From the NCBI GenBank assembly GCA_041661385.1, contig JBAZUP010000002.1, positions 78,670-142,669 of the forward strand: DNA of 64,000 bases, read 5' to 3'. The notes under the pieces were generated by a model. It did not search any database and was not told where the DNA came from. It saw only the letters and a list, made by a program, of their open reading frames with translations. The position numbers and the translations under genes were made by a program. This stretch comes from Patescibacteria group bacterium (lineage in GTDB: Bacteria; Patescibacteriota; Patescibacteriia; Magasanikbacterales; GWA2-37-8). Positions within the stretch are counted from its first letter, which is position 1, and every line of letters starts with the position of its first letter. Positions 9,201 through 38,680 of the stretch are shown here, piece after piece.

Positions 9201-11142
9201 TAGCACACTTACCGGTACAGGTGGGGCATATAATATTCCGGTTGGAAGTAATTTTTATCTTAATCCAAATGATTTACCAAATGGTACGCCCCAAACTTAT
9301 TATCATCTGGTAAATAATTTCGGTGAAATGTCGGCTGTAGTGGGTGGTTTTTATCGTGGCAATCCTAATGATTTATTATTATTTTATAGCAGCTCAGATC
9401 AGATTCCAGCAGTAAGTAATAATATCGGTCTAGATGTTAATACTGGGTTATTTAATTATTATTTTAGAGAAGCAAACGTTTATGATTTCCCTGGTTTAGT
9501 TGGCAATTTATTTTCCACAACTCCATCGTTTAAAGCGGGTACTATACAAGTCGATGATATTTGGGATGCGAATATAAGTAATACTTATGTAATTGCCGCA
9601 CCTGCTACTCAGATTCCTGATCCCTATTCTGACCCCATGAACCCCACATATATAGATGTTCCAGCGACAGTTAATACGGGTTTTTGTCCAACCGATTTAA
9701 TTATAAATGGTAGCCACGGTCATTACGATGCGCCATATACATGGCACGCAATTCGTTTTAGGTTTGATCCATACACTCATCAATTAGTTAATGTATACAC
9801 TGCATTTTGTGGGCCCGTTAGAGGGGCAGATGATGTTGTATATCAAATATCTTTCCAAACTCGCGAATGGTGTACTGATTTGGCGAACGATCAAATTGAT
9901 TTAGCGCGATCGAGCGGCCAGCGCGCTATTGCTTGGACCGATCGACTCTTTAGCCTACCAAAGAGTCCGCCATTTTCTGTGCCCGATCTCGGATTTACTT
10001 ACGATACTATTAATCCCGCGTTTGGCAGTATTTCTCCGGTGTTAAATCCGCCTCTAAATCAACCGGTATCTCTCAGTCCCGCTCCGTCGATTGATTGTTC
10101 AAGTTACAATTCAAATACCAGTAACTGCAGTTCGTTTGCGCAACCTCTTATCAACAATTCCCATACTGGATCGGCTTACAGCAGAAATTCCACTTTTCCA
10201 AATGATGTGCCTTATTGTGTTCGAGGTCCTTGTCTAATTCGGAATCCGTTTACTAACGCTTGTATGGCTTATTTTATAGACTGTTCATTGGCACGGCCGC
10301 CAGCAGCCGGTGGAAACAATTATTTGCTTACGGTATTTGCCGCTCATAATAATATTCTAAGTTATCGAACTTCTACCGCTTCTTATGTAAATAATGCTGT
10401 GTCGACAATGCCATTAAATATTACTCAATCCGGAGATTATATTACTGGTGTTCAGCCCAAACCGCCCGAAATTCACCCACTCGGTCGGAGTGTGTCTGGT
10501 ACCGGAAGTAATGCCGGAGTTTATTATGAGGAATTGCCGGCGCTGGGTTTTTCAGTGAACAATTCGAGTACCGGACAAGTGGTGTCCGCTCTTGGCAATG
10601 GGTATAATTTTTCCTTGGATTTCTTCATGTTTGCCGACAAAAATCAAATGCCGATTCGCTCGGTCACGATTGATTGGGGAGATGGGTATGCTCCTGTTCC
10701 GAATGCCGGATCTTTCCGCAATCAGCGTGGTGTTACTTCTACCGCTCCGTTAAAATTGCAGTGTCAGCCTCGGGCGAGCGCCATTGATTTCGGTCATATT
10801 CTTGATCAAACTTGCGACAACGCATATTTCCACGCCGAAAATATTTATTCCTGTGCTGGTTCGGCCGGCAATGTCTGTGCTGGGTTGAATGACAGTAATT
10901 GCTATGTCCCTGCGAATGATGCTCGAAATTTATGTCCTACTGCTTACCAAGCATCCGGTTGTTGTTTCTTCAAACCAAAGGTTAGAATTATAGATAATTG
11001 GGGGTGGTGCAATGGAAGTTGTATTGCAGGAAATGGTGGTTGTTATGATGCCTCGGTGAGTGGTGGAATTAATCAATGTAAAGAAGATCCGCGTTCTTGG
11101 ACAACATTTGGTGGTACAGTTGTTGTACCTAGCAGTAATTAA
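3238..11142 (+). CDS. giant (2634 aa) Cys-rich secreted/surface protein with CBM4/9-like beta-sandwich segment
   Basis: Uninterrupted 7.9-kb ORF. N-terminal signal/TM (LTLVSLFLFVLVFG). Very many paired cysteines. Segment near nt 6270-6640 (WVGGGFRALVS...SYDLTFWASAA...IYLDNIKLVKV) resembles carbohydrate-binding modules. Intrinsic terminator follows directly. Confidence 0.7.
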   Translation: MRDRFRKFSKLTLVSLFLFVLVFGDLVLMNRVNAQPDGSVADFAALDAGGGVPVTDIGASVSRLMSSIKALIKSALISGGIRAASYALRKVAFDSAVWVASGGKGQSPLAHTGGFGGYLKNVGDEAAGTFISEMSSKAGVNLCKVPDIKIDLAIKVGLRTRFGGGPPAKPVCTLSQFTKNWSSGEAWSKYSDPNKLAKSFSSSIIANDSDLGIYIAATEKINNKIIQQKEAATLDRQEGDGIKSLNTLIGDQIKTPAALVKKTVEGLDPAETLKKNEALLNSALAGGDAKVFPAVLSIFLSTLGGTILNNFQTKGILPTGMCAGGIGGPGCSNGSGSYNNPLFNESGEGLTSLGRAAAKSFFNYLTAVKIKEVNRYDLASQLNSCPDSPGIYNCRAGDDLTNAIDQKITIEDAIKLGILDGNKKLIPDDVKTRSISNDLNCYLSAYCLNNVKVLRQLRILPLGFEIAISRSNPNDLSTLKSVVDAFNDKNSSFYHLIDPRWVIKAPEAKCNALVNSASLLGADLPARLQDCVDLQTCVGYDNNGNCIDYGYCTREQNTWKFPADKCSEQFATCAVFQNSKGNSVGYIKRTLDSAYCTQSNDGCTAYSLSRNSLNQWVAPQFPATASANAGIFLNSKAETDCSANSAGCSIFKIASANSNDYLNIKKAPDYLGCYDSNPATPAIDWPQTAIDLGRLSTNSECNNYAKACTADEASCNWYTPKNGGIKLPGRFVPAVVTTSSVIWNDQCDARCEGYNVYREMPSNYSNGQDLAYIIPSSGKTCVAEDEGCSSFTNLSTAVGGVENTEYYSYLRPCITMSEATSTVAKTFITYEGSKENGFQLHTYLMLFNQGTTDVPQNGPAGSPKYFYKDPAELASLNNECTEQRYKDGVASLDCRQFNDKDGNIYYRMISHTIPANEKCTGYRLNDPEFYVDATIVTPDACQTRLGNWTNSGGANVCEMCVQNGEYRNGACIYSGIPTGVQNPAGVSRSCGASADTCRAYKGNAGNNIQTVFSENFETASSSDGWVGGGFRALVSTRVGEYSFEHDGGGAFSKSLTLEPGKSYDLTFWASAASMANVTVSLNNGTANTMGVVSVSGVWRQYHLGTIELKGANPSVQLTFNHAAGDSIYLDNIKLVKVASYLYLVKNSLSVDPVCDSIPNDNLPGEALGCSAYSDPQGRSFYLTNFSFLCREDAIGCTALFDTFNTESTLPEAYHVWIPGAASTTVNGSIPAPYSCKIGDGQNGCYVDIKGYSLSTIRAALNGSVVASTVYIPGDTPSSSPVYLVANKAASCNEVDLGCSLAGKQVFGSNGWQFMTTTIKNVPASYADTLCESQATGCSAFSEGDSISYFKDPSVAGQTLCAYQTDVPVANGTSGTKRQNGWFLKTRVGICSNSSSLTCHENTAASDCGVGTAVCTQLTYDPCYPAEPQTTIGYDLLSFGTTGYQNIVGECPSDQNKCTEIIDHAGNSSNRKNYLIFDDKLTSGDCAGQVSQKLGCALFDQTDNPIKLWHTTSTYAFSETVENVLVSPSSTSNNDANLILKVVPDRSCGEWLSCGSSYSVYDDQTGKYRNVCNRIQRCNGSTCSGVNATYANSILNSDIYTARTTTWAGMDYAGYSLLGFYPVERFDQVNMVTSTDNPDWRLVKKVPCGVISGVSNCTTGSVNIYSCGEPSGYVDGLPCGTESVPGVCMNHICVQPPTGVDTAITQQELADISPSHSCRAYPESDSPFPRTQKIINGGAFSGVHICSEENPNGCECNYRKVSYGDSIIKYWNYSGNDSVDSKIGNLNGNDPVGICLGGTGEGNSCSTDSQCPEGACQFKSGTVRKLLGWKGFCLEKDTSRVLNADPAVNPCLTWFPVESLVGAADIYNQHTEAGTDWHATPHNGGYYCLSSSGTSTTRTARIAFSPSGLFAQDPRQDQCGNRGAFGLADCKTENCGNGCNYQYTREIFSRNIIDIPSQTEILENNTSRAYVAATDLVGIKKEDIGVIKISTLTGTGGAYNIPVGSNFYLNPNDLPNGTPQTYYHLVNNFGEMSAVVGGFYRGNPNDLLLFYSSSDQIPAVSNNIGLDVNTGLFNYYFREANVYDFPGLVGNLFSTTPSFKAGTIQVDDIWDANISNTYVIAAPATQIPDPYSDPMNPTYIDVPATVNTGFCPTDLIINGSHGHYDAPYTWHAIRFRFDPYTHQLVNVYTAFCGPVRGADDVVYQISFQTREWCTDLANDQIDLARSSGQRAIAWTDRLFSLPKSPPFSVPDLGFTYDTINPAFGSISPVLNPPLNQPVSLSPAPSIDCSSYNSNTSNCSSFAQPLINNSHTGSAYSRNSTFPNDVPYCVRGPCLIRNPFTNACMAYFIDCSLARPPAAGGNNYLLTVFAAHNNILSYRTSTASYVNNAVSTMPLNITQSGDYITGVQPKPPEIHPLGRSVSGTGSNAGVYYEELPALGFSVNNSSTGQVVSALGNGYNFSLDFFMFADKNQMPIRSVTIDWGDGYAPVPNAGSFRNQRGVTSTAPLKLQCQPRASAIDFGHILDQTCDNAYFHAENIYSCAGSAGNVCAGLNDSNCYVPANDARNLCPTAYQASGCCFFKPKVRIIDNWGWCNGSCIAGNGGCYDASVSGGINQCKEDPRSWTTFGGTVVVPSSN

Positions 11143-11242: not shown

Positions 11243-11980
11243 TTACTGGAAAACGCAGGTGTAGAGTCCGGTGAACGGATAGAACGCCTGGGTCATGGAG
11301 ATCAATTGGTTGGTCACCGGTGGGGATGTGTAAACGACCTGACTGGCAGGATCGCGAGCCAAGAGTGCGCCTTCAAGATCATTCATCTTGGCCATACACA
11401 CCCCATTGTTAACATACAGGGTGATGATGCCACCTTGTGGTCCGATTTGAGATGGGCAACCCTTCACCGCGCGGTTGTCGAGGTCACTGCGCCACTGGGC
11501 GCAGATATCGACCGGCGGGTCGTTGACCTTCAGGTTCACTGAGGCCGGGTTGCTGGAATTGCCAGCTTTGTCGGTCGAGATGGCCGTGAGGGGGAAGGAC
11601 CCAGGAGTCGTTGGGATCCACGAGCAAGTGACCGTGAAGCCGCCGTACAACCCGTACGTGACGTCGGTCGTCGTGCAGACGATCGTGTTGTTCACCTTGA
11701 AGTCAACGCGATCGATACCGCTCGTCGGAGCGCCGGGGTCGCTCACCGTGGCGGTGAGCGTGACCGTGGTGCCAACGACGATGTTGGTGTCGGCGGTCGG
11801 CGCCGTGATGACGACGGTGGGTGGGGTGATGTCGGGGTTCTGGACGCACTTGTTCTGGGTAGCGTCCCAGTGCTCGCCGGACGGGCAGGTCGGAGGGGTG
11901 TTCGTGTCTTCGCCGCCGCCACCGCAACCGACGATGAAAGCGACGATGACGACGGCGATGATGACGAAGAACTTCGTCAT
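11243..11980 (-). CDS. GC-rich islet: lipoprotein with Ig-like (Big-type) beta domain
   Basis: Start chosen at MTKFFVIIAVVIVAFIVGCGGGG, a lipobox (track ORF extends to 12079). T/V/P-rich beta-strand repeats (TPPTVVITAPTADTNIVVGTTVTLTATVSD). Region is visibly GC-rich against AT-rich flanks. The many overlapping ORFs on both strands are GC artefacts. Confidence 0.5.
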   Translation of the reverse strand: MTKFFVIIAVVIVAFIVGCGGGGEDTNTPPTCPSGEHWDATQNKCVQNPDITPPTVVITAPTADTNIVVGTTVTLTATVSDPGAPTSGIDRVDFKVNNTIVCTTTDVTYGLYGGFTVTCSWIPTTPGSFPLTAISTDKAGNSSNPASVNLKVNDPPVDICAQWRSDLDNRAVKGCPSQIGPQGGIITLYVNNGVCMAKMNDLEGALLARDPASQVVYTSPPVTNQLISMTQAFYPFTGLYTCVFQ

Positions 11981-12341
11981 CGAGGTGCGACGGATCGGCA
12001 GGGAATTGGTCATGGGCTTCTCCAGGTGCATGGGAATGGTGAGTGGCATCAACTTTGCGTCGAGGGTCTGTTGTTTCATGATGAAACTTCCTTCGGCCTC
12101 AAGGGCCCGTTGTGGCCCTTTGGGCCGTTAAACTTCTACAGACATTTTCAGAATTCTTTGAAGCTAAGGCAGAAATAGAAAATAATGGATTATTTACTAC
12201 CTATTTCCACCTTAGCTTTTCCAACTTCATAGTGGTTATTATTGGTCAAAAAATGACTAAAATAACACATTGTAAAGAGCAAAAGATGTAATAAATACAT
12301 CATTGTTTTTCAACCCAATTCTATCATAAGAAAAACATATA

Positions 12342-12370
12342 AGTATACACCAAAATAGGGGTTTTGTCAA
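12342..12370 (-). promoter_or_regulatory. sigma70-like promoter (TTGACA-N17-TATACT) pointing at the GC-islet lipoprotein gene
   Basis: Minus strand reads gtttacTTGACAaaacccctattttggtgTATACT. A near-identical module recurs at 27017-27045. Confidence 0.4.
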
Positions 12371-12395
12371 GTAAACGCCCTTATCCCCATTTTCG

Positions 12396-12424
12396 TTGTT
12401 GGCACTCATTTTTTATGCTATAAT
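12396..12424 (+). promoter_or_regulatory. candidate promoter of the T4SS-like operon (extended -10 TGcTATAAT)
   Basis: ttgttg-N17-tgcTATAAT about 40 nt upstream of the 12461 start, in a 330-bp AT-rich intergenic region. Confidence 0.3.
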
Positions 12425-12460
12425 AAGAGCACGTTTGAAGATTTAATTCTCATTGTTTCC

Positions 12461-15400
12461 ATGACGATAGAAAATATCGTAAAAAAGCTTGTTTCATGGA
12501 AAAAAATAACGCGAAATCAAAAAGCGATTTTTTTGTCGACTTTATTTTTATTTATATTTGGATTATTTTTTGCTGTTCTTCCCGCCTCAGCCCAAACGAA
12601 TACATTTGTCGGTAACAGTTTTTTTGACGCGCTTCTTATCAGCATGTCTCGGGTCATGATGGTAGTAGCACAAACCTGTTTACAGCTGCTCATGTTTGTT
12701 TTAACTTTCATTATTCAAATTGCCGCCTACAATAACTACTTAGATTCCACTGCCGTAAACACCGGTTGGATTTTAATCAGAGATCTTACCAATATGGTTT
12801 TTGTGGTGGCTTTGCTCGCCATTGCTTTCGGCACGATTCTTGGTATCGAACACTACGAATGGAAGCATATGTTGTTCAAGTTGGTTTCTGCCGCAATTTT
12901 AGTAAATTTCAGCCGCATCATCTGTGGCATTCTCATTGATATTTCTCAAGTAGTGATGATGACATTTTTAAATGGTATCGCTGCCACGATGGGCGGTAAT
13001 CTTATTCGCACTTTTAGTTTGGAAAAAATTCAAAGTTTTAGGCCTGGTGTCTCGGGCGCTCTCATTGACCCAGCCACCGTATTTATTACCGCCATGGCGG
13101 CGGTGTTTATTTCGGTCACGATATTGGTTGTCATGGGTATCATGCTCGGCATGCTTGTTGGGCGTATGATAGTGCTTTGGGTACTCATTGTACTTTCTCC
13201 AGTCGCTTTTGTGCTCGGGGTTTTACATCAGACCGAACACTATGCTTCAGAGTGGTGGGGTGAATTTGGTAAAAATGTTATAACCGGCCCGGTTTTAATA
13301 TTTTTTATTTGGCTTACTTTGGTTACGGTCGGAAGTGGAGTTATGGACCAAGAAATGAATAATGCTACCACTGGCGTTCCAAAACCAGAAACTATCAATG
13401 TCGGTATTGCTGATGTCTTATCCGGTGGTAAATTAGTAAATTTTGCTATTGCGATTGGCATGCTTTTGGTTGGTTTGCGGGTTACTCAGCATCTCGGTGG
13501 TATTGGCGCCGAATGGACCGGCAAAGCGGTAAGTATTGGTAAGAAAGCCGCAATGGCGGTGAGCGGTGTCGCACTCGCGCGTGATATGGCAAAATCTGCC
13601 GGTGGAGCGGTTCGGGATTATGGTCAACAAAGTTACAAAAATCTTGTTTCTGCACCGAAGGCGTTGGCTTCAATGGGTTTATCAAAAATAAAAATGACAC
13701 GGGATAATATTGCACAAGGCTTTGAAAAAGGTGGTAAAAAAATGATTGAATTAAAAAGTTTAAGAGATCGAAAGATTATTTCTGAGAAAGAATATCAGGC
13801 GCGTGTTAAGGGTGATGAAGTTGCATTAGGTCAAGTATATAATGAGAAAGCATTTTCACAATCTCGCGAAGAAGGCGATAAATATCGCGCTCAATTGGAA
13901 GCTGAAAATAAATTACTAAAACCGGCCGACCGACTTTCAAAGTCTCAAATTGCTCTCAAGGTTATGCAAAGGCAACAAGAAGTAATTGCTAATGTTCAAA
14001 GAGAAAAAGAAAAAGCATTAGCGGACAGTCCAAAAAAAGGTGGAGTATTTCAGTCTACAGCGGCAGGTCGCGTGGCTGGGAGTGTTTTGGGTTCGATTTT
14101 TCAATCTCAGTCCAGGGCGACTTCAAGAGCTGAAAATTGGGCACAGGCCGCTGAAAGCCTGAAAGTACGAGCTGGAAACGAAGAAAGTACAAGTGCTACG
14201 TTGGGTGGTCAGGTTAAGTTGAAACAAGGTGTACTTGAACACGCCTCCGTAGAAAGAGGTAAGGCTAAATCGCAACAGAAAAAAGATGAAGAAGCCCAGG
14301 CACTTATTGCAACGGAAGACGAAACATTCCATGAGTTAGAAGAAGGTGCAAGAAAGGCGAAGGCTGCTGGAACTGTGGCGCAAGCCTATGTTTCTGGTCA
14401 TGAGGCGTTAGCTCAACAAAAAGCTGATCAGAAAGCTGGTGTATACCGGGCTAAAACAAAACAAGAAATAGAAGAAGGCCTCGCGCGAGCTAGAGATAAT
14501 AGTGGCGTTGCCTTAGAAAGAGAAAAACTTATTTCCGAACCATTGATGGTCCGCGGTAATAAAATAGATTATATTGATCATACTCCGGAAAGTTTAAAAC
14601 TAGCCGAGAGTCATATTGATTCATTGGTCAGTGATGAGGGTGAGCGTGAAAAATTAAAGCAAAAAGCCGAAGCAATGCATATGGAGGCTTCCAGAAAGAG
14701 AGAAGAGGCAATCGGAGTACAGCGTAAAGAAGCGGTTGCTGCCCAAGAAACTGCTGCCGGTGCAAAAGCAAAAGAACAATTAGCGAAAGAAGGTGATTAT
14801 AGATTGAGAGAGCAAAGAATCACCGGCTTTACTGCAGAAATGAATCAGATTCAGGACAAGCTTACCGCAGAACGGCAAAATGAATTATTAACTTCAATTA
14901 GAAATTTATTAGAATCAGAAGTTGGCCTGACTAGGCAACAACAAATTGCTTCTTTTCAGGCGGGCAATAAAATGCAAGAAGATAGAACTGGGGGCATAAA
15001 AGAGCGTGAGGCTTTAGCAGCAAGGAGAGAATTGATGGCTTCGGCGGATAGTCGCCGGGAATTAAGGGAGACAGAACAACAAAAAGCACAAAATAAGCAA
15101 CAAGAAGAAAGATTGAGTGGAATAGGTGAAAGAGAAGCTGGGCGTGCAAAACGAGATTTGTTAGCAACTACTGGAGGACAAAATGAGCAGGCGAAAATTT
15201 ATCGCACAAGAGGACAAGAGGAGCTCGATAAAAGCTTGGCGGAAGATCCGCAAATAATGATGCAAGCGAGAGAAAAAGCTGCCATTTATAGACGTAATGG
15301 GGATCCCCTAAGGGCAGAAGCGACACTTAAATCAGCTTCAGCTCAAGTTGATAAAAAATATTCGGAATTATTTTCTGGCCTAACTTATGATGACCGAATG

Positions 15401-16231
15401 GCACAAGAAAAAATTCTATTAAGAAGGATTGCTGTAGAATCGGCGCCGGGAGGTGATCGGCGTAGGCTTGAAACTGCACAAGCAATGCGAGCTGCTTTAA
15501 CGCGATTAAATACAGCATCAGATGCTTCTTCGGCTCGAGACGGACGACAGGCCGCTGCGAGTGAATTGGGGGTTACCCAGATAGACGATACAAATAGTTT
15601 TATGGTTGAATTACAGCGGCTTACTGGTAATAGGAGTAATAATATAAATATTTTAAAAGCCGCTTTTGAAGCGAGGTTTAGAGGTGACCGGGTACAAAAA
15701 CAAGCGGCGTTAAGAGGATTATTTGAAGCTTACAAAAAAGCGGCTGAACGGGGAGATGAAACAGCGTTAGGCTTTATTAAAAAAGATTTAGTTGGTGCAT
15801 CAGGAAGTGAGACACTTAATTTTGAATGGGCAGCTGATCAAACGGACGCTAACAAATATGCCACGACGTATGGTACTTTTTTTGCGGAAAGAGCAAAGGG
15901 GCAAGTTGATACGATTGCTCCGATGTCTGGAAAAACTAAACAATCTGCGAGTGGTGAATGGGTAATGAATGGACAGACTACACAAGGACGTAAATCAATT
16001 GTCGCTTTTCATAAAGGAAAAGATGGAAGAGAGATGTCACAAAAAGATATGACTCCAGTTTACGCTTCTTGGAATAGTGCAGAAGTGAATGGGGCAAATG
16101 TTGCAGAGTATGTTCAAACAATGCAGGAGATAAAAAATGCCATGCCAGATGATGGATGGAGAAAATTCGAAGAAAATGTGAAAGATCTTAAAGCAAAAAT
16201 GGCCGCTTTTGGAGGTACCTGGCCACCGTAG
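12461..16231 (+). CDS. VirB6/TrbL-like polytopic membrane protein with long C-terminal charged coiled-coil extension (1256 aa)
   Basis: About 340 aa of multiple TM helices, then about 850 aa of E/K/R/A/Q-rich predicted coiled coil. It is the first gene of a cluster containing VirB4. Extended VirB6 proteins are known in Gram-positive and Rickettsiales T4SS. Confidence 0.5.
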   Translation: MTIENIVKKLVSWKKITRNQKAIFLSTLFLFIFGLFFAVLPASAQTNTFVGNSFFDALLISMSRVMMVVAQTCLQLLMFVLTFIIQIAAYNNYLDSTAVNTGWILIRDLTNMVFVVALLAIAFGTILGIEHYEWKHMLFKLVSAAILVNFSRIICGILIDISQVVMMTFLNGIAATMGGNLIRTFSLEKIQSFRPGVSGALIDPATVFITAMAAVFISVTILVVMGIMLGMLVGRMIVLWVLIVLSPVAFVLGVLHQTEHYASEWWGEFGKNVITGPVLIFFIWLTLVTVGSGVMDQEMNNATTGVPKPETINVGIADVLSGGKLVNFAIAIGMLLVGLRVTQHLGGIGAEWTGKAVSIGKKAAMAVSGVALARDMAKSAGGAVRDYGQQSYKNLVSAPKALASMGLSKIKMTRDNIAQGFEKGGKKMIELKSLRDRKIISEKEYQARVKGDEVALGQVYNEKAFSQSREEGDKYRAQLEAENKLLKPADRLSKSQIALKVMQRQQEVIANVQREKEKALADSPKKGGVFQSTAAGRVAGSVLGSIFQSQSRATSRAENWAQAAESLKVRAGNEESTSATLGGQVKLKQGVLEHASVERGKAKSQQKKDEEAQALIATEDETFHELEEGARKAKAAGTVAQAYVSGHEALAQQKADQKAGVYRAKTKQEIEEGLARARDNSGVALEREKLISEPLMVRGNKIDYIDHTPESLKLAESHIDSLVSDEGEREKLKQKAEAMHMEASRKREEAIGVQRKEAVAAQETAAGAKAKEQLAKEGDYRLREQRITGFTAEMNQIQDKLTAERQNELLTSIRNLLESEVGLTRQQQIASFQAGNKMQEDRTGGIKEREALAARRELMASADSRRELRETEQQKAQNKQQEERLSGIGEREAGRAKRDLLATTGGQNEQAKIYRTRGQEELDKSLAEDPQIMMQAREKAAIYRRNGDPLRAEATLKSASAQVDKKYSELFSGLTYDDRMAQEKILLRRIAVESAPGGDRRRLETAQAMRAALTRLNTASDASSARDGRQAAASELGVTQIDDTNSFMVELQRLTGNRSNNINILKAAFEARFRGDRVQKQAALRGLFEAYKKAAERGDETALGFIKKDLVGASGSETLNFEWAADQTDANKYATTYGTFFAERAKGQVDTIAPMSGKTKQSASGEWVMNGQTTQGRKSIVAFHKGKDGREMSQKDMTPVYASWNSAEVNGANVAEYVQTMQEIKNAMPDDGWRKFEENVKDLKAKMAAFGGTWPP

Positions 16232-17510
16232 AAATATAAATATGACTTTAAACCTAAAAGATAGTCAGCAGCTAGAATCAAAGCTAGTAGAAAATTCACA
16301 AACACCACAAGGGCGTGAGAATGTTTGGGTTTTTTTGCATTCTTATTTTCTTAATGCAACACCAGACGACGACAAAAAAGTTCGACTGACTTTATTTCGT
16401 TGGTATACAGACTTGACCTGGAAAAGAATAAATTTACTTTCAAATGAAGATTTTGTAAATGTCGCTTTTGGTCGACAAGTACCACTCGCTTTACTTCTCG
16501 GGTTTGATATTCAAAAAATTCTTTTTGATTATTTAAATTTTCGATGCCCAGAAAAGGAAGACATGGTGGATGTTTATGCAAAAACAAAAAATGCTTTTAT
16601 GAATTCTGAGGCTTTTCTTGGTTCGTTGGACGGAATTGAATATGGCGTAAAAGATATTATACCGGATATAAAAAAATATAATTTAGAAAGCCTGTCTACT
16701 TTAGAAAAAGCGACTATTACAGAAAAATTAACAAAAATATTGTTTCCCAAGAAAGATGAATTATTTAATCAATATATATTTACCGAGCCAACTCAGGTTG
16801 TTGATTGGTTTATCGGGTTGGTAAATTTTTTCATGGGTGTAAAAGCTGAGGATATTAAATTGATAGTGGACGGTTATAATAGAGAAGAGGATGAAGAAAT
16901 TATTAAAATATCCGAAAATAATAAAAAAATTGCACAAAAAGAGACAGAAAATAAACCATTCGAATTAAAACAATCGGAATCGATGAAAAATGTTATTCCG
17001 GTTATAAAACCCGAAGAGCCAAAAAAGCCGGAAATAAAAATTGAGGCTAAAAAAGAGATAAAACCCGAAGCGAAAAAAGAAATTAAACCTGAAATTAAAC
17101 CAACTGAAATTAAGGCCGGCGCAAAAACGCCGGAGAAAACTGATGACTCTATGTTTTTCTCAAAAAAATCAACTTCGCCAAAGAAACAAGAAGGTGAAGT
17201 AAATCACAATGTCGATGAAAACCTAAATGCTCCGAAGGCCCTGACACGTTCGCCAATTTTATCTGGTCATAAAAAGCCAGAAACGACGACGGGGGTAACC
17301 AATCGAAGATTGTCTTATAAGGAAATAAGAAAGCAATTAGAAAGCCGATTTGCAAAGGACTCGTATGGGCATTTCTTGAATGTGACAGATGTGCTGAACG
17401 AGTTGCAAAAAATTTCTGTTACGCAAGAAGATCCGCACATAAAAGATTTGTATTATTTTAATGAACAAGCTGGAGGATTTGAGTGGAATGAAAATTTACT
17501 CAAAGATTAA
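16209..17510 (+). CDS. hypothetical protein with KPE/KKEIKPE tandem repeats
   Basis: Real start is probably ATG at 16239 (MTLNLKD). Lys-Pro-Glu repeats (EIKPEAKKEIKPEIKPTEIK), no TM. Sits between the VirB6-like gene and the Pro-rich gene. Confidence 0.45.
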   Translation: MEVPGHRRNINMTLNLKDSQQLESKLVENSQTPQGRENVWVFLHSYFLNATPDDDKKVRLTLFRWYTDLTWKRINLLSNEDFVNVAFGRQVPLALLLGFDIQKILFDYLNFRCPEKEDMVDVYAKTKNAFMNSEAFLGSLDGIEYGVKDIIPDIKKYNLESLSTLEKATITEKLTKILFPKKDELFNQYIFTEPTQVVDWFIGLVNFFMGVKAEDIKLIVDGYNREEDEEIIKISENNKKIAQKETENKPFELKQSESMKNVIPVIKPEEPKKPEIKIEAKKEIKPEAKKEIKPEIKPTEIKAGAKTPEKTDDSMFFSKKSTSPKKQEGEVNHNVDENLNAPKALTRSPILSGHKKPETTTGVTNRRLSYKEIRKQLESRFAKDSYGHFLNVTDVLNELQKISVTQEDPHIKDLYYFNEQAGGFEWNENLLKD

Positions 17511-17512
17511 TT

Positions 17513-18964
17513 ATGTCTGATCAAGACGAAATAAAAATTTTAGTAAAGAAATCTGACGGCAGTTTTATACACATGCCGATTTCGGAAGTTCAAAAACACA
17601 ATCGGCTGACACCGACTGCGTCTTCCGCCGAGCCTGTTTTATCAAAACCGGCGGCTTTTAATCCCGCTGCGCCATTTGCTTCTGTACAGCCGGTTGCACC
17701 TGCTGCACCTCAAAAGCCAGCTGCGCCAGTTGCCCCTCAAAAACCAATTGAAAAACCGGTTGAAAAGAAACCGGAAACAATGCCAGTTGTAAAACCGGTA
17801 GAAAAAAATGAAGCATCGAAACCTAAATTTAATCCAAAAGAAAATGCCAGATTAGAAAAAGAAATTCCGGCGGTAATCAAAGCGGCGCCGGTAGTAAAAA
17901 ATACGCCACCGGTTGCAAGTGCGCCAATAAAAAATATTTCGGCGGCAGTACCACCCATTCCGGTTACGCCACCCCAATCGAAACCAGTGGTACCAAAAAT
18001 CGAACCGGTTAATTTGTCAGTAGTATCTGAAAAGAATGATATGGGTTCGCTGCTGGATGAAAAATTACCGAATGAAAATAAACTCACTCCGCTTACCAGT
18101 GAATCAAGAGATAAGCAAGTTGATGAGATAATTAAAAGTATTGGTTTTAAAATACCTCCTGGAAATAATAGTAGAGTAAAAACAATCATTCAATTATTTT
18201 TAAAAGAAGTTCGAGGCAAGGAAGAAACAATGGAAATTTTACGCCGGCCCGAAATTGATGGGGGAGTTGGTTTGTCCGATGAACAAGTAAATGAAGTTTT
18301 AGAAAAATGCAGTAAAACTACGGTATCAGCTGCCGGCAGTTTTTCCGTGCCATCGTTAAAAACTGTGCCGAAAATAACCGTGCCGATGCCAAATAAACTA
18401 GCAGCGATTCAAATAACAAGAATTACGAATTCGCAAGTAAGCACAAATGACAATAAGCGCTTAGAAGCAGAGTTGCCGGCTGTGGTAATAAAAACAGCAG
18501 CCCCAAAACTGCCGCCAAAACCAATTGCGACTGGAGATGCTAGAAAAATTTTAGAAGAACAAATAACTAAAAATACAATGTCGGAATTACCTGGTAATTT
18601 TACGATTAATTCCGATCGAAATAAAACGACCATGTCGGATGTAAAATCGGCTCCGGCTCAAATGGGACCGATTGAGGAAATTCGTTATTTTAGTTTGGTA
18701 GATTTTCGTAGGTTGTCCGGAGATCCGACCGAGGCTGCCAATCGGTTGAAACAAAAGTTTTTAAATCTTCACGAGGAATCAGTAGTTTTTTATTTTGAGG
18801 GGCTCGACGCCTGGAAAATTTCGCCGCTTTATCACGATTATATAAATTTGGTAAGTGAGGCGATAAAAAAACGCCAGACGCTGGCGCAAGTTGCAGTAGA
18901 TAAATCCAGAATACAAGTTTCGGAAATAAGCGCGCTTATTAAAATGGAAAAAGAATTAGGCTAG
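17513..18964 (+). CDS. hypothetical Pro/Ala/Lys-rich repeat protein
   Basis: PAAPQKPAAPVAPQKPIEKPVEKKPETMPVVKPVEK low-complexity repeats. Start is 3 nt after the preceding gene. Confidence 0.5.
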   Translation: MSDQDEIKILVKKSDGSFIHMPISEVQKHNRLTPTASSAEPVLSKPAAFNPAAPFASVQPVAPAAPQKPAAPVAPQKPIEKPVEKKPETMPVVKPVEKNEASKPKFNPKENARLEKEIPAVIKAAPVVKNTPPVASAPIKNISAAVPPIPVTPPQSKPVVPKIEPVNLSVVSEKNDMGSLLDEKLPNENKLTPLTSESRDKQVDEIIKSIGFKIPPGNNSRVKTIIQLFLKEVRGKEETMEILRRPEIDGGVGLSDEQVNEVLEKCSKTTVSAAGSFSVPSLKTVPKITVPMPNKLAAIQITRITNSQVSTNDNKRLEAELPAVVIKTAAPKLPPKPIATGDARKILEEQITKNTMSELPGNFTINSDRNKTTMSDVKSAPAQMGPIEEIRYFSLVDFRRLSGDPTEAANRLKQKFLNLHEESVVFYFEGLDAWKISPLYHDYINLVSEAIKKRQTLAQVAVDKSRIQVSEISALIKMEKELG

Positions 18965-18965
18965 T

Positions 18966-19406
18966 ATGCAACAATTTACCGTACCACAATTTATTGATGT
19001 TGAAGATAAAATTTTTGGTCCTGTTACAGCCCGTCAATTTAGTATTATGATTGGGGCGGTTGGTCCGATATTTTTAGCTTATAAACTCGCAGATTTTGCT
19101 TTATTTGTATTTATCGCGATTTTAATCGGCGGCACGGCAGCGATGTTTGCTTTTGTGCGCATAAATGGACAGGCTTTTCATTATTTTGTTTTAAATATTT
19201 TACAAACCTTACGTCGTCCAAGTCGTCGTCTTTGGTATAAAAGTTATACGAACGCTTCTTTGCAGGATTTTTTAAATTATGAAAAGCAAAATGTAAAAGA
19301 TAAATTGGATGCGGAAGATAATAAAATTGAAAAAAAAGTTATTTCCAATACGCGCATCAGAGATTTGTCGCTATTAGTGAATACCGGCGGGTATTTTAAA
19401 GTTTAA
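18966..19406 (+). CDS. small 2-TM membrane protein, VirB3/PrgI-like candidate
   Basis: 146 aa with two hydrophobic helices (IMIGAVGPIFLAYKL, ALFVFIAILIGGTAAMFAFV). Position just upstream of VirB4 matches prgI/virB3 in Gram-positive-type T4SS. Confidence 0.4.
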   Translation: MQQFTVPQFIDVEDKIFGPVTARQFSIMIGAVGPIFLAYKLADFALFVFIAILIGGTAAMFAFVRINGQAFHYFVLNILQTLRRPSRRLWYKSYTNASLQDFLNYEKQNVKDKLDAEDNKIEKKVISNTRIRDLSLLVNTGGYFKV

Positions 19407-19415
19407 TTTAAAAAC

Positions 19416-20102
19416 ATGAAAAGCAAAACCGAAGAAAAAAAGAAGAAAAGCATGGTTACGACCCAAAACCATTTGCTTATTTCTGAAATTAAACAGGACA
19501 CTGTAATAATGAAAGACGGTACTCTTCGCGCTGTTATTATGGTTTCGAGTATTAATTTTGCGTTAAAAAATGACGACGAACAAAATGCGATTATTCAGTC
19601 TTATGTCGGTTTTTTAAATTCACTCGACCATCCCTTGCAGGTCGTAATTCAATCTCGCAAATTACAAATCAAACCATATATCGACCGCCTAATTCAGCAG
19701 GAGCGCAATCAGACAAATGATTTATTGCGCACCCAAACCGCCGATTATCGGTCGTTCGTACTTGAGCTTGTAAAGCTTGGTGAAATTATGAACAAGCAAT
19801 TTTATGTGGTAGTTCCTTATGATCCGATTTCAAATAAAACAAAAAGTTACTGGAGTCGCGTGAAGGAAGTTATAAATCCTACGGCGGCGATTTCTTTAAA
19901 AGGTAAAAAATTTGATGAGCGCAAGAAAGATCTCGACAGCCGGGTACACCTTGTTGAAAGCGGTCTAACCAGCATTGGCTTACAAATTGCGAGGTTAAAT
20001 ACCCAATCGCTCATTGAACTATATTACTCAACTTATAATACTGACATTGCTTTGGTTCAGGAACTTGCCCCAATTGAGCAATTGCAGGTAGAAACAGAAT
20101 AA
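19416..20102 (+). CDS. VirB4/TraC N-terminal domain-like protein (first part of a split VirB4)
   Basis: LLISEIKQDTVIMKDGTLRAVIMVSSINFALKNDDEQNAIIQSYVGFLNS resembles the N-terminal region of VirB4/TrbE. It is in the same frame as the next ORF, separated by one TAA at 20100-20102. Confidence 0.5.
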   Translation: MKSKTEEKKKKSMVTTQNHLLISEIKQDTVIMKDGTLRAVIMVSSINFALKNDDEQNAIIQSYVGFLNSLDHPLQVVIQSRKLQIKPYIDRLIQQERNQTNDLLRTQTADYRSFVLELVKLGEIMNKQFYVVVPYDPISNKTKSYWSRVKEVINPTAAISLKGKKFDERKKDLDSRVHLVESGLTSIGLQIARLNTQSLIELYYSTYNTDIALVQELAPIEQLQVETE

Positions 20103-20105
20103 AAT

Positions 20106-22004
20106 TTGAGGTATAATGTAACAACTATGGCATTTAAGCCCACTAATCAAACAATTGAATCAAAGACCTCCGAGTCATTACTTGATAAGCAAAAAAATGT
20201 AATGAAAGATCGGGCCGAATCTGAGTTAGTAACGCTTGAGGAAGAGCGTATTTTTCGCGAGGGTGTAGTTTCGATTCGAGATCTTATTGCTCCGGCGGCA
20301 TTTAATGTTGAATCTAATTTTTTACAAATTGGTACCGCTTTTGCGCGAACAATTTTTGTCGCTTCTTATCCACGGTATATTTCTATTGGTTGGAGTTCGC
20401 CGATTATTAATCTTTCGGTAACCATGGATATCGCGATGTTTTTTTATCCGGTTAAATCTGAAATAATTTTAAAACAGCTTCGAAATAAAGTCGGTGCGCT
20501 CGAAGCGCAGATAACCTCGGATTCGGAAAAAGGCGCGCCTCGCGATCCGATTCGTGAAACCGCTCTTCGAGATATTGAAAAACTTCGTGATGATCTTACT
20601 CAAGGAATTGAACATTTTTTTCAGTTTGCTTTTTATGTCACTATTTATTCAGAATCCAAAGAAAAACTCGATACCGTATCGGCGGATGTCGAAAGCATTT
20701 TGGGCGCAAAATTAATCGGTACAAGAAAAGTATTGTTTCAATCTGAACAGGGTTTCAATTCGACCCTTCCGATTGGCGTGGATGAAATTATGGTTTCATT
20801 CAACATGAATTCAAGTCCGATTGCCGCTTCTTTTCCGTTTATTTCCGCCGAGCTTACTTCGGACAGCGGTATTCTTTATGGAATAAATCGCCATAACAAC
20901 AGTTTAATCTTGTTCGACAGATTTTCGCTTCAGAATGCCAACATGGCGGTATTTGCTACTTCCGGTGCTGGTAAAAGTTATTGCGTAAAACTGGAAATTT
21001 TGCGTACCCTCATGATGGGAGTAGATGTCATTGTTATTGATCCGGAAATGGAATATAAACATCTTAGTGATGCAGTCGGCGGTACCTACATAAATATTTC
21101 ACTTTCTTCGGAAAGTAAAATTAACCCATTTGATTTACCTCGGCCGGTCGGCCAGTCGATATCCGTCGAAGATGTTATTCGTGGCGCTGTCATTACCACC
21201 AAGGGCCTTTTGCGTATTATTTTTGGCGGTTTAAGCACTGCTCAGGACTCATTAATTGATCGGGCGCTCATTGAAACCTATGCCAAAAAAGATATTACCG
21301 CTGATTCTGATCTGGCCACCGTTCAGCCGCCGATTATGCAAGATTTGCTGGAAATTTTGGAAGGTTTAGAAGGCTCCGAGGAATTGGTGATGAAGCTGAA
21401 AAAGTTTACGGAAGGTACTTTTAGCGGTCTCTTTAATTCACCGACCAATGTCGATATAAAAAATCAACTGGTGATATTCAGCGTGCGAGATTTGGAAGAC
21501 GAACTTCGCCCGATTGCTATTTATACAATTATCAATTATATTTGGAACGTCGTTCGTTCTGAAACAAAAAAACGTATCTTGGTTATTGATGAGGCTTGGT
21601 GGCTTATGCAGCACGAAGATAGCGCCAGATTTATTTTTGCCCTGGTTAAGCGCTGCCGTAAGTATTATTTGGGAGTAACCACTATTACGCAGGATGTAAA
21701 TGATTTCTTGAAATCTCAATATGGACAGGCGATTGTCACGAACACTGCTTTGCAGATGCTTATGAAACAATCTCCGTCGGCGATTGATCTGATTCAAAAA
21801 GTATTTATGCTTACGGATAGTGAAAAATATCTTTTGCTAGAAAGCGGTGTTGGTGAGGGAATATTTTTTGCCGGTTTCAAACACGCGGCGATTAAAGTCG
21901 TTGCATCTTATACAGAAGACCAGATCGTTACAACTAATCCGGAACAACTGCTTCAGATTGAAAGAGCTAAAAAAGAATTTCAAGATCAACTTAAAAAAGA
22001 ATAA
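20106..22004 (+). CDS. virB4: VirB4/TrsE-family type IV secretion ATPase (ATPase domain)
   Basis: Walker A VFATSGAGKSYCVK, Walker B ILVIDEAWWLM, and VirB4-like C-terminal motifs. First ATG is at 20127; the track start at 20106 is TTG. Confidence 0.8.
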   Translation: MRYNVTTMAFKPTNQTIESKTSESLLDKQKNVMKDRAESELVTLEEERIFREGVVSIRDLIAPAAFNVESNFLQIGTAFARTIFVASYPRYISIGWSSPIINLSVTMDIAMFFYPVKSEIILKQLRNKVGALEAQITSDSEKGAPRDPIRETALRDIEKLRDDLTQGIEHFFQFAFYVTIYSESKEKLDTVSADVESILGAKLIGTRKVLFQSEQGFNSTLPIGVDEIMVSFNMNSSPIAASFPFISAELTSDSGILYGINRHNNSLILFDRFSLQNANMAVFATSGAGKSYCVKLEILRTLMMGVDVIVIDPEMEYKHLSDAVGGTYINISLSSESKINPFDLPRPVGQSISVEDVIRGAVITTKGLLRIIFGGLSTAQDSLIDRALIETYAKKDITADSDLATVQPPIMQDLLEILEGLEGSEELVMKLKKFTEGTFSGLFNSPTNVDIKNQLVIFSVRDLEDELRPIAIYTIINYIWNVVRSETKKRILVIDEAWWLMQHEDSARFIFALVKRCRKYYLGVTTITQDVNDFLKSQYGQAIVTNTALQMLMKQSPSAIDLIQKVFMLTDSEKYLLLESGVGEGIFFAGFKHAAIKVVASYTEDQIVTTNPEQLLQIERAKKEFQDQLKKE

Positions 22005-22010
22005 AAATAT

Positions 22011-22601
22011 ATGCCATTAAGAACACGAATTTTTATAATGATTGGTGCCGGGGTATTTGTTATCGGGGTAATAAGTATTTTTATAATTTTTAAGTTTGGC
22101 AAAAAGCCGGTCACAACTCCGCCGGTTCAGGAACAGGTAACCATTAATCAAACAAATGATCAGGTTAATGTAAAAGTTGGCACCGAACCGACTGTCGTGC
22201 CAAAGAATGTAAAGATAACCCCTCCGACTGCAATTCAGCAGGAAGATATTACGGTAAAAAATATCGCTCGAGTTTATATTGAAAGATATCATACCTATTC
22301 TAGCGAAAATAATTTTCAAAATATTCGTGATATTGAATCAATTGTCACTGCAGCCTATTGGAAAAAAATCAGCGCGCCAATGGTCGCAAAAATAGCGCCT
22401 CCGGCTAGTTTTGTTTCTTTAACAACCGAGGTGCTTAGCATATTATCAGTTGATGTAAAAAGCATCAGCGCATCGGTGGCGTTAAACACCCGTCAAACTG
22501 CTATCGCAAACGGACAAACTACTGTTAGCTTTAAAGAATATACCGTGACGCTTGTTAAGTCTGGTGGTAGCTGGCTGGTAAGTGGAGAGACTGCAAAATA
22601 G
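22011..22601 (+). CDS. bitopic membrane protein, VirB8-like (NTF2-fold) candidate
   Basis: N-terminal TM (IFIMIGAGVFVIGVISIFIIF). C-terminal about 120 aa has an NTF2-like character ending SGGSWLVSGE. Directly follows VirB4. Confidence 0.35.
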   Translation: MPLRTRIFIMIGAGVFVIGVISIFIIFKFGKKPVTTPPVQEQVTINQTNDQVNVKVGTEPTVVPKNVKITPPTAIQQEDITVKNIARVYIERYHTYSSENNFQNIRDIESIVTAAYWKKISAPMVAKIAPPASFVSLTTEVLSILSVDVKSISASVALNTRQTAIANGQTTVSFKEYTVTLVKSGGSWLVSGETAK

Positions 22602-22603
22602 TT

Positions 22604-23236
22604 ATGGTTACGGGGGAAGTAAAAGAAAAAATAAAGGATTTTTTGTTTCCGTATTTTTGCGCAGGCTGTAATAAAGAAGGGGAATGGTGGTGCAAAAACT
22701 GTCGCAAAACTGAAGTAGCACCTTCTATTATAAAGGCCGAAGCTGGGCTAGAAGCTGTTTCGGTTCTTTTTAATTATGATGAACATTCGGCAATTGGTTA
22801 TCTTATTAAACAGTTCAAATACAATTATGTTAAGGATATTTCGGAATTATGGAGAGCTGTTATAGTAGAAGCTAATTTATATTTTGAAAATAATACCATG
22901 CTTATTCCGGTTCCGCTTTTTTGGCGTCGAGAGCGAGAAAGAGGGTATAATCAGGCAAATATTTTAGCTCAAATATTGGCGGAGGTTTCCAAAAAAGAGC
23001 CGGTTCTGCATGCTCTAACTAGAGTTCGGCCGACCTTGCAACAAGCAAAACTTAATCGCGCTGAGCGGCAAATAAATGTTTTAAATGCTTTTGAGTGGCG
23101 GGCAAGCTATGTTCCAGAGCGGGTTGTCTTGGTGGACGACGTTTATACCACCGGAGCGACCATGAAAGAGTGCGCAAGCGTATTAAAACAGGCGGGGGTA
23201 AAGAAAGTCTCTGGTTTTGTATTGGCGCATGGATAG
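22604..23236 (+). CDS. comFC: competence protein ComFC (phosphoribosyltransferase-type)
   Basis: N-terminal Cys cluster (CAGCNKEGEWWCKNCR), PRTase motif VLVDDVYTTGATM. Confidence 0.75.
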   Translation: MVTGEVKEKIKDFLFPYFCAGCNKEGEWWCKNCRKTEVAPSIIKAEAGLEAVSVLFNYDEHSAIGYLIKQFKYNYVKDISELWRAVIVEANLYFENNTMLIPVPLFWRRERERGYNQANILAQILAEVSKKEPVLHALTRVRPTLQQAKLNRAERQINVLNAFEWRASYVPERVVLVDDVYTTGATMKECASVLKQAGVKKVSGFVLAHG

Positions 23237-23550: not shown

Positions 23551-23585
23551 AAAAGACCAGTCATTAGGACTGGTCTTTTTTATTT
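23551..23585 (+). terminator. terminator after the tRNA pair
   Basis: aagaccagtc-atta-ggactggtctt followed by a T-run. Confidence 0.7.
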
Positions 23586-24376: not shown

Positions 24377-24811
24377 ATGTTTGGAGAAAAAATACCTACT
24401 GATAAAGAACAGCTTGAAGCTGGGCGAATTTTTGTTTCCCCTTTACCGATTGAAGAAGGACCTGAGTGGAATAGCGCAGAAATTGAAGGTAAATTATCTG
24501 TAGATGTGCTTGAGACCGAAACCGATTTGGTTGTTATTGCTACCATGGCCGGCACCAGGCCGGAGGATATTTTTTTGCATTTACACAACGATTTTCTTAC
24601 TATTCGAGGCAGTCGGTCCCCAAATTTGAATGAACCGGTTCACTTTTTTTATGAAGAATGCTATTGGGGAAAATTTTCAAGAACAATCGTTTTGCCGGTA
24701 GATGTAAATGGCGATATAGCAAAATCTGAATATCGTAATGGTGTACTTACCATTCGTTTGCCAAAAGCCAGCGCAAGGCAAAGTATTCCAATTTTAGTAA
24801 TTGAAGATTAG
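24377..24811 (+). CDS. Hsp20/alpha-crystallin small heat-shock protein
   Basis: ACD motifs: FLTIRGSRS...YGKFSRTIVLP...GVLTIRLPKA. Confidence 0.85.
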   Translation: MFGEKIPTDKEQLEAGRIFVSPLPIEEGPEWNSAEIEGKLSVDVLETETDLVVIATMAGTRPEDIFLHLHNDFLTIRGSRSPNLNEPVHFFYEECYWGKFSRTIVLPVDVNGDIAKSEYRNGVLTIRLPKASARQSIPILVIED

Positions 24812-37117: not shown

Positions 37118-37192
37118 TCCGGGATAGTTGAGTGGTACAACGCCACGCTGTTAACGTGGATATCCTAGGTTCGAATCCTAGTCCCGGAGCCA
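37118..37192 (+). tRNA. tRNA-Asn (GTT), CCA encoded
   Basis: Acceptor tccggga/tcccgga, anticodon stem ccacg/cgtgg with loop ctGTTaa, T-arm ctagg-ttcgaat-cctag. Its 3' end overlaps the recombinase stop region. Confidence 0.85.
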
Positions 37193-38677: not shown

Positions 38678-38680
38678 GAC

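Follow-up and report, generated by a model that had tools for sequence, protein, structure and literature searches.

We analysed a 64-kb stretch of DNA from a Patescibacteria group bacterium, referred to below as the window, which carries at positions 12461-23236 a gene cluster with the components of a type IV secretion system (T4SS). A listing of the open reading frames (ORFs) verified the coordinates given in an earlier reading of the letters alone (the original prediction): eight ORFs, all on the + strand, follow an AT-rich region. They encode a VirB6-like protein with a long hydrophilic tail, two soluble proteins (ORF2 and ORF3), a PrgI/VirB3-like protein, a VirB4 divided over two genes, a VirB8-like protein and ComFC. 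Lengths are given in amino acids (aa) and nucleotides (nt):

12416-12424, + strand: candidate extended -10 promoter, TGcTATAAT, read by eye, 37 nt 5′ of the first start codon
12461-16231, + strand: complete VirB6-like ORF, 1256 aa
12461-13495, + strand: VirB6-like N-terminal domain, a signal peptide and then about seven hydrophobic helices
13496-16231, + strand: VirB6-like hydrophilic tail, ~910 aa
16242-17510, + strand: ORF2, 422 aa from ATG 16242 (mechanical ORF of 433 aa from TTG 16209)
17513-18964, + strand: ORF3, 483 aa
18966-19406, + strand: PrgI/VirB3-like small membrane protein, 146 aa
19416-20102, + strand: TrsD-like (VirB4 N-domain) protein, 228 aa
20106-22004, + strand: VirB4-type ATPase, 632 aa from TTG 20106 or 625 aa from ATG 20127
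22011-22601, + strand: VirB8-like bitopic protein, 196 aa
22604-23236, + strand: ComFC, 210 aa, beginning 2 nt after the VirB8-like gene

With the likelier ATG starts, the intergenic gaps measure 10, 2, 1, 9, 24, 6 and 2 nt, and the cluster is a real, tightly packed operon; for ORF2, ATG 16242 is the more likely true start. The GC content of the cluster is 0.397, compared with 0.412 for the window. The upstream spacer (12080-12460, 381 bp) has a GC content of 0.34, falling to 0.30 over 12132-12460. The candidate promoter within it was not listed by a consensus promoter scan, and its -35 element is weak; consensus scans for promoters and terminators were uninformative altogether. Downstream of the operon lies a terminator-like hairpin (23551-23579), and genes for tRNA-Phe and tRNA-Pro are found 3′ of the last operon gene.

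The ATPase matched the NCBIfam model NF045971 (conju_CD1110) over model positions 172-728 with an E value of 1.1e-104 and 351.2 bits (cut-off 325), and 13 of its 13 best NCBIfam matches were VirB4, TraC, TrbE or Ced ATPases. The TraG P-loop domain of Pfam was matched at 2e-26, and the only matches in the PDB were Thermoanaerobacter VirB4 (4AG5, the best, 5e-47) and TrwK. Neither FtsK nor HerA, the grouping that the original prediction had set against its own proposal, was present among the NCBIfam or PDB matches; the ATPase groups with VirB4. A Walker A motif (SGAGKS) and a Walker B motif (LVIDEAW) can be read in its translation. Its true start is likely ATG 20127, which is preceded by GAGG and gives a protein of 625 aa, compared with 622-625 aa in the orthologues.

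The 228-aa protein encoded upstream of the ATPase matched the TrsD/TraD model NF041427 with an E value of 1.1e-7 and 31.9 bits, below the cut-off of 200. It also matched positions 8-96 of the 752-position CD1110 model and positions 92-253 of the 894-position Mycoplasma model VirB4_plasma (3.5e-9), of which the ATPase ORF spans positions 284-889. Since the two ORFs cover successive parts of the model, they together tile a full-length VirB4, in agreement with the split VirB4 proposed earlier. Judged by these matches, the 228-aa protein is clearly a remote homologue of TrsD and of the VirB4 N-domain, whereas strict membership in the TrsD family is not clear. In the window, both genes share one reading frame with a single TAA between them (20100-20127). 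Among 77 related loci the TrsD-like protein is always encoded by a separate gene, and in 59 of them the two genes lie in different frames. A split caused by stop-codon read-through, by pseudogene formation or by an assembly error was therefore rejected; going by this comparison, it is genuine and ancient.

The small protein encoded upstream of virB4 matched the PrgI family of Pfam (PF12666; E 2.9e-9, 37.8 bits versus a gathering score of 27), contains a hydrophobic hairpin at aa 32-66, as expected for the predicted VirB3/PrgI-like protein, and is kept in 69 of 69 loci at 44-68% identity. The gene following virB4 encodes a protein with a transmembrane (TM) helix (aa 3-31), a disordered linker and a C-terminal NTF2-like domain, for which Pfam, NCBIfam and PHROG gave no match. 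Its AlphaFold model reaches a confidence score (pLDDT) of 79 overall and of 85-97 over aa 70-196. A Foldseek search of the PDB with this model returned the VirB8-like protein of Rickettsia as the best match (4o3v, 9.5e-5), together with PrgL (7aed, 2.3e-4) and further matches to TrwG, CagV, DotI and TcpC; comparable scores were obtained for generic, unrelated NTF2 folds, among them the CaMKII hub. The predicted fold and the position next to virB4 thus point to the bitopic, VirB8-like protein that had been postulated. The product of the last ORF matched TIGR00201 over the full model at 5e-33 (114.6 bits, below the cut-off of 233.55), and also GntX (1.5e-24) and the Pfam domain Pribosyltran (27.7 bits, cut-off 26.3); a PDB sequence search was without a match. 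In its sequence we read a four-cysteine motif, C19/C22/C30/C33 (CxxC...CxxC), and the phosphoribosyl pyrophosphate (PRPP) loop VDDVYTTGAT, and its earlier naming as ComFC was retained.

The first 345 residues of the 1256-aa protein comprise a signal peptide (aa 1-45, ...PASA/Q) and about seven hydrophobic helices (aa 63-343). In Pfam and NCBIfam, the complete protein gave only an insignificant match to SHOCT. Its proposed VirB6/TrbL similarity was reached through a homologue, P0010, which matches the 1256-aa query with an E value of 8e-30 and 36% identity over aa 95-360 and itself passes Pfam TrbL (31.6 bits versus 25.9) at its residues 127-282. Weak TrbL matches were also obtained for three of 35 close relatives (best 0.0011), and the structure model of the polytopic domain suggests a VirB6 fold. 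With about seven helices and ~910 further residues, the protein has both features that define an extended VirB6, namely at least five hydrophobic helices and a large hydrophilic domain.

The tail (aa ~346-1256) consists of 48% E, K, R, Q and A, 8.9% Pro and Gly and 23% strongly hydrophobic residues, contains neither Cys nor TM segments, and is laid out as a charged middle followed by a weakly conserved C-terminal region of ~350 aa. The coiled coil originally ascribed to the C-terminal two thirds was not confirmed. In a Fourier test for a 3.5-residue (heptad) periodicity of hydrophobic residues in 56-aa windows, the tail gave a mean z of 0.19, with 5% of the windows above 2, whereas the SMC arms encoded in the same 64 kb, which served as positive control, gave 1.64 and 4.02, with 43% and 84%, respectively. 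The tails of the orthologues behave like the query tail. A coiled coil was rejected by this comparison, no dedicated coiled-coil predictor or structure model having been applied to the tail, which is a charged, helix-prone or disordered extension and not a demonstrable coiled coil. BLAST self-comparison revealed no internal repeats. The tail had no match in Pfam, in PHROG or, by profile, in the PDB; a profile of its C-terminal region likewise retrieved nothing from the PDB, and no Pfam domain was detected in the tails of 35 full-length relatives.

Such a giant extension, which had been called unusual, is the rule in Patescibacteria T4SSs, this lineage included, since it is long in the orthologues, in the best relatives of the N-terminal domain and in SEML1_0013 of Southlakia (see below). 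All of 50 complete orthologues measure 910-1890 aa and share one layout, with the VirB6 domain placed between an AxA signal peptide and 550-1600 hydrophilic residues that lack a TM segment. Searching 1.84 billion representatives with the N-terminal domain yielded 16,580 relatives (2,192 at <=1e-30), and nearly all of the best 150 have 900-1900 aa, with the match confined to the first ~400 residues. “Extended VirB6” is, moreover, a known category, the function of which was called unknown in a 2025 FEMS review (PMC12857230). In a single-sequence search, the tail beyond aa 650 was recognised in only about two of the 50 orthologues, giving the impression of a hypervariable tail. This was amended by an iterative search (jackhmmer), in which 75 of 197 relatives ended in a collinear counterpart of the last 356 aa, with 12-33% identity. 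By this measure the tail evolves fast and keeps a weakly conserved C-terminal region.

With a cleavable signal peptide and seven helices, the protein is predicted to end inside the cell. In 49 of 49 orthologues, the net charge of the 80 aa beyond the last helix is positive (median +9), and the composition of the tail (E, K and R 0.27; S, T, N and G 0.22; no Cys) resembles that of the cytoplasmic proteins of the window and is unlike that of its secreted proteins (0.06-0.18 and 0.26-0.35, respectively, often Cys-rich). The tail is thus probably cytoplasmic.

The two ORFs between virB6 and prgI had been described as a KPE-repeat and a (PAAPQKP)n repeat protein. This description was not borne out: the tandem repeats amount to merely 12 bp x1.9 in ORF2 (17079-17101) and 27 bp x2.2 in ORF3 (17688-17746), and the “repeats” are short low-complexity linkers between small domains. 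ORF2 is a soluble protein with a K/P/E-rich linker, without TM segment or signal peptide, and conserved only in its last ~60 aa; no match was found in Pfam, NCBIfam, PHROG or, also by profile, the PDB. ORF3 is soluble as well and combines a Pro-rich linker with a conserved C-terminal domain (aa 370-483). It is encoded directly 5′ of prgI in 69 of 69 loci and had no match in Pfam, PHROG or, again by profile too, the PDB. Its 37 database relatives are all unannotated, and the identical sequence is a hypothetical protein of a Patescibacteria group bacterium (NCBI WC725_04315). Between virB6 and ORF3, one to three ORFs of 300-760 aa are present in different species, so that this slot is hypervariable inside an otherwise rigid operon. 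In many species, one or two extra ORFs occupy it, as at L008 (4262-6466), L012 (4091-6106), L023 (4186-6420), L039 (4061-6343) and other loci; they showed no similarity to proteins of the window, and the ten that were tested against Pfam had no match.

A VirB4 scan of a genome collection identified 572 relatives. The best 80 are 71-87% identical to the query, and almost all of them are labelled as Magasanikbacteria or as Patescibacteria metagenome-assembled genomes; some genomes carry an evidently wrong automatic label. Magasanikbacteria are placed in the GTDB class ABY1. Across 80 Magasanikbacteria species, the gene order is kept as VirB6-x-ORF3-PrgI-TrsD-VirB4-VirB8-ComF. TrsD, PrgI and ORF3 are encoded upstream of VirB4 in 69 of 69 loci, ComF lies within 2 kb of VirB4 on the same strand in all 72 loci that extend far enough, and a VirB6-like gene was found within 10 kb in 48 of 52. 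The window also contains 16S rRNA, KsgA, ClpP, SMC, TrmD, ribosomal protein S16 and tRNA genes, and the operon is therefore chromosomal.

For absent components, all window ORFs of at least 150 aa and ten small membrane ORFs were scanned with Pfam. No relaxase, VirD4/TcpA or integrase was detected among them, and neither a VirB1-type hydrolase nor a VirB2-type pilin was detected in the operon or the other scanned ORFs, which agrees with the original statement that no relaxase, VirD4 or pilin is visible. ComEC and DprA (by Pfam) and ComEA were not found in the window either.

T4SSs of Patescibacteria were described in 2023-2025 (PMC10633639, PMC12102498). In a survey of 2,474 Patescibacteria virB4 loci, TrsD was the most abundant component, relaxases were nearly absent, comF occurred in ABY1 loci and KsgA was encoded nearby (Quinonero-Coronel et al. 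2025; PMC12102498). We see no essential difference between the ABY1 T4SS of that survey and the present operon, which shares with it an MPF-FATA-like VirB4, an adjacent TrsD, PrgI/VirB3, VirB6, a chromosomal position near ksgA, comF in the locus and the lack of a detectable relaxase. A VirB8-like gene is also present here, and VirB8 homologues were detected in the survey almost only in ABY1. VirB2-like pilin genes near virB4 are frequent, not universal, in Patescibacteria loci and occur in many assemblies of the survey, but were not found in this window (PMC12102498). The minimised Gram-positive-type T4SS, the TrsD split, PrgI, VirB6, the ABY1 VirB8, the comF linkage, the missing relaxase and the proximity to KsgA have thus already been published or tabulated, and the operon is a well-preserved example of the relaxase-less chromosomal system typical of ultrasmall Patescibacteria and no new kind of machine. 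The survey is silent on the long VirB6 tail and on the soluble products of the two genes that separate virB6 from prgI. Neither the universal long tail and its likely cytoplasmic location, nor the conserved ORF3 family and the compact, pilin- and hydrolase-free operon of Magasanikbacteria, is discussed there or in the related literature that we examined.

In Southlakia epibionticum, the homologous T4SS is essential for epibiotic growth, which does not require comEC, comF or dprA (Wang et al. 2023; PMC10633639). SEML1_0013 of this organism (3267 nt, 1088 codons) has structural similarity to VirB6/TrbL (Tables S1 and S2 of PMC10633639); the genes after it encode, in this order, an NTF2-like protein, a large product (2997 nt), PrgI, a small protein and VirB4 (PMC10633639). 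In a similar gene order, the T4SS of strain ML1 (SEML1_0006-0019) shares with the present operon a long VirB6-like protein, a large protein of no assigned role, PrgI, a small protein and VirB4, all in a cluster without a relaxase or coupling protein. It differs by an essential array of VirB2-like pilins, two cell-wall hydrolases and the lack of comF in the cluster. Its NTF2-like gene follows the VirB6-like gene, whereas here the NTF2/VirB8-like gene comes after virB4 and is followed by comF.

With the MPF-FATA systems (Trs of pGO1/pSK41, Tra of pIP501, Prg of pCF10 and CTn2), the operon has in common a CD1110-type VirB4, PrgI, a VirB6 homologue, a separate TrsD as in pGO1, a VirB8-fold protein (PrgL/TraM-like) and the lack of an outer-membrane core. 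Unlike these systems, it is chromosomal and vertically inherited, lacks a relaxase, a type IV coupling protein (T4CP), a VirB1-type hydrolase and a surface adhesin, and encodes a VirB6 that is about four times longer. Other extended VirB6 proteins, i.e. the Rickettsiales Rvh/VirB6 paralogues, TraG of F and the MPF-FA VirB6 proteins of 700-900 aa, equally possess at least five helices and a large C-proximal hydrophilic domain (PMC12857230). The extension has no detectable sequence similarity to theirs; it is charged and lacks Cys, its predicted location is the cytoplasm, and the lineage in which it occurs is one of monoderm episymbionts. ComB of Helicobacter pylori (with ComEC/ComFC) and archaeal Ced are T4SS-related ATPase machines without a relaxase, too. 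The link to ComFC is functional in ComB but genomic here; ComB possesses the VirB7-10 core of diderms and is encoded apart from comFC. VirB4 of the window resembles CedB only weakly (1.4e-14).

Every component examined agreed with the proposed minimised Gram-positive-type T4SS. The component set, the operon structure and the vertical inheritance are established, and the parts were identified as VirB4, TrsD, PrgI/VirB3, an extended VirB6-fold protein, a VirB8-fold protein, two lineage-specific soluble proteins and ComFC. Together they fit a Patescibacteria-type T4SS derived from the monoderm MPF-FATA class. We consider it very probable that the cluster is a chromosomal system of this type in the Magasanikbacteria/ABY1 arrangement, most likely serving contact-dependent exchange with a host. 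A single promoter would drive all eight genes. By analogy to the established roles of these families, VirB4, with TrsD in trans, would energise the system. Through VirB3, the VirB4 hexamer would be docked to an oligomer of VirB6 within the cytoplasmic membrane, with VirB6 as the membrane translocon or stalk base and VirB8 as a wall-proximal collar, so that ATP hydrolysis could push macromolecules through a minimal monoderm translocon. The VirB6 tail and the two soluble proteins may provide a platform for docking or for substrates, and exchange upon host contact is envisaged by analogy to Southlakia epibionticum. The constant co-location of ComFC suggests handling of single-stranded nucleic acid on the cytoplasmic side; this coupling to ComF is the main lineage-specific clue and makes a nucleic-acid substrate plausible, without proving it. 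Patescibacteria T4SSs in general have been proposed either to export proteins or to be a conduit through which the cell takes up material from its host (PMC12857230). A 2026 preprint reports tubular structures at the parasite-host interface that may be T4SS pili, and, for a parasite that feeds on RNA, ties VirB4 to the transfer of macromolecules. The view of the original prediction, DNA uptake or host interaction of an episymbiont instead of conjugation, is also the present proposal of the literature (PMC12102498, PMC10633639, PMC12857230).

Several observations weigh against this interpretation. The negative results cover 64 kb only, and VirD4 or a relaxase could be encoded elsewhere in the genome. 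The pilins and VirB1-like hydrolases that are essential in Southlakia were not found in the window, so that the machine may differ or be incomplete. The 1256-aa protein has no direct match to Pfam TrbL (PF04610) even at E <= 1, the VirB6 assignment leans on a model of moderate confidence (pLDDT 65), and profiles of the N-terminal domain (A1 and A7) compared with the PDB did not reach TrwI, with noise from the charged tail dominating A1. The cytoplasmic location of the tail is deduced from charge, helix count and composition only, and topology rules may not apply, given that most VirB6 helices of the R388 structure lie outside the membrane.

Four other explanations were weighed. That the cluster is a remnant or an active module of an integrative conjugative element could be suspected from its closest curated family, the CD1110 VirB4 of the Clostridioides conjugative transposon CTn2, and from a serine recombinase encoded 14 kb downstream. 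The recombinase, however, sits at a separate tRNA-Asn locus with housekeeping genes in between, the cluster has native GC content, and relaxase and T4CP were not found among the scanned ORFs. The same gene order and flanks recur in ~70 species, with identity sliding gradually from 87% to 71%. On the strength of this conservation between species, an origin from such an element was rejected, and we regard it as extremely improbable; without a relaxase or coupling protein nearby and with a fixed, vertically inherited chromosomal position, the cluster is not a conjugation module. The lack of relaxase and T4CP in the scanned ORFs is also what an importer would predict, and the T4SS could work inwards, like Helicobacter ComB or archaeal Ced, as a DNA-uptake machine that brings host or environmental DNA to the membrane, where a co-transcribed ComFC takes over the single strand in the cytoplasm. 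In favour of this idea, comF follows the VirB8-like gene after 2 nt and accompanies VirB4 on the same strand in 72 of 72 loci, and VirB4 weakly matches the DNA importer CedB (1.4e-14). ComFC was reportedly characterised by Damke in 2022 in H. pylori, a species whose DNA uptake runs through a T4SS. ABY1 T4SS loci, moreover, include comF, recG and radA (PMC12102498). In Southlakia, however, the essential T4SS contrasts with non-essential comEC, comF and dprA genes (PMC10633639), and competence depends on type IV pili and ComEC (PMC10633639; PMC12857230). Neither ComEC nor ComEA nor DprA is encoded in the window, the match to CedB falls well short of that to conjugative VirB4 (1e-104), and a conserved adjacency may persist without a functional link. 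We regard DNA uptake as an unlikely role. A more specific version, in which a pilus-less ABY1 T4SS imports nucleic acids and the tail with the ORF2/ORF3 platform passes host DNA or RNA on to ComFC, is distinctly improbable.

Conversely, the system might export proteins or effectors into or onto the host, with ORF2 and ORF3 as substrates or chaperones and ComF as a mere neighbour. The ORFs at the ORF2 position are highly variable, lineage-specific and devoid of TM segments and signal peptides, like fast-evolving effectors, and protein export or an alternative role was preferred for the Southlakia T4SS, relaxase and T4CP being absent (Wang et al. 2023; PMC10633639). Known effector signals or domains were not detected in ORF2 and ORF3, though, the conservation of the ORF3 C-terminal domain in 69 of 69 loci speaks rather for a part in structure or assembly, and effector export normally requires a T4CP, which was not seen in the window; we consider this role doubtful. 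The last alternative concerns the VirB6 tail, which could be extracellular and form a filamentous stalk or adhesin substituting for the VirB2-like pilus. Such an arrangement would suit the failure to find a pilin gene in the operon or window and the fast evolution of the tail (about two of 50 orthologues detected beyond aa 650). The C-terminal domain of the F-plasmid TraG, an extended VirB6, is exported. Signal peptide and seven helices, however, predict the C-terminus inside, the segment after the helices is net positive in 49 of 49 orthologues, the composition of the tail is cytoplasmic-like and not secreted-like, and a heptad pattern as in a rod-like coiled coil is missing. We give this placement of the tail little chance.

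Several features surround the operon. Immediately 5′ of it lies the gene for a secreted protein of 2634 aa (3238-11142, + strand) with a signal peptide (aa 8-32), 3.9% Cys and a faint CBM_4_9 match only. A homologue of its C-terminus is encoded upstream of the T4SS in 22 of 52 Magasanikbacteria loci, and the protein may be a host-contact adhesin associated with the T4SS. Between this gene and the operon, on the opposite strand, an Ig-like (Big_7) lipoprotein of 278 aa is encoded (11243-12079, - strand) in a patch of 56% GC, compared with 41% for the window; a homologue was not detected in any of the 80 related loci, and the gene may have been acquired recently. Next to KsgA, a 197-aa membrane protein without a PHROG match is encoded at 2641-3234. 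Its homologue directly adjoins the ORF3 homologue in L073 (5998-8834) and L074 (186-1974), two related genomes whose cluster includes neither the giant protein nor the VirB6-like gene; this arrangement indicates that the KsgA side is an old boundary of the locus and that virB6 can be encoded elsewhere. Just 3′ of the operon (24377-26714) are an Hsp20 gene and the gene for a VanW/PG_binding_4 membrane protein. At least 17 related loci also have VanW homologues, located 2-8 kb downstream of ComF; a VirB1-type hydrolase was not seen there.

Further downstream, the gene of the large serine recombinase (37178-38677, - strand) overlaps with its 3′ end the tRNA-Asn gene (37118-37192) by 15 nt and is neighboured by genes for a subtilase (38993-41242) and an AAA ATPase (41246-42283). 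The region 37118-42283 looks like an element integrated at the tRNA gene; a duplicated 3′ end of tRNA-Asn (att site) was not found in the window. At 42537-43478, ORFs of more than 300 aa occupy both strands of the same 940 bp, a patch of 47% GC, and the + strand product looks like a Cys-rich lipoprotein without a Pfam match. The 16S rRNA gene (57300-58860) is complete, with no 23S gene in the next 5 kb and with tRNA-Val (59582) and tRNA-Ile (60012) downstream (region 57300-60086); the rRNA genes appear to be unlinked.

The T4SS of Patescibacteria is among the few machines that have been proven essential for the epibiotic life of ultrasmall bacteria. For the preferred reading, a chromosomal Magasanikbacteria/ABY1 version of this system that most likely mediates contact-dependent host exchange, the present analysis provides handles: a compact eight-gene operon, ComFC in every species examined (72 of 72) and a VirB6 tail of 550-1600 aa. 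If the system were instead a nucleic-acid importer, the tail and the two soluble proteins would replace the missing coupling protein, the machine would correspond, in monoderm bacteria, to archaeal Ced and Helicobacter ComB, and the essential T4SS of Patescibacteria would be tied to nucleotide scavenging. The comparative points collected here could guide tests of a nucleic-acid substrate and of the role of the extended-VirB6 domain.

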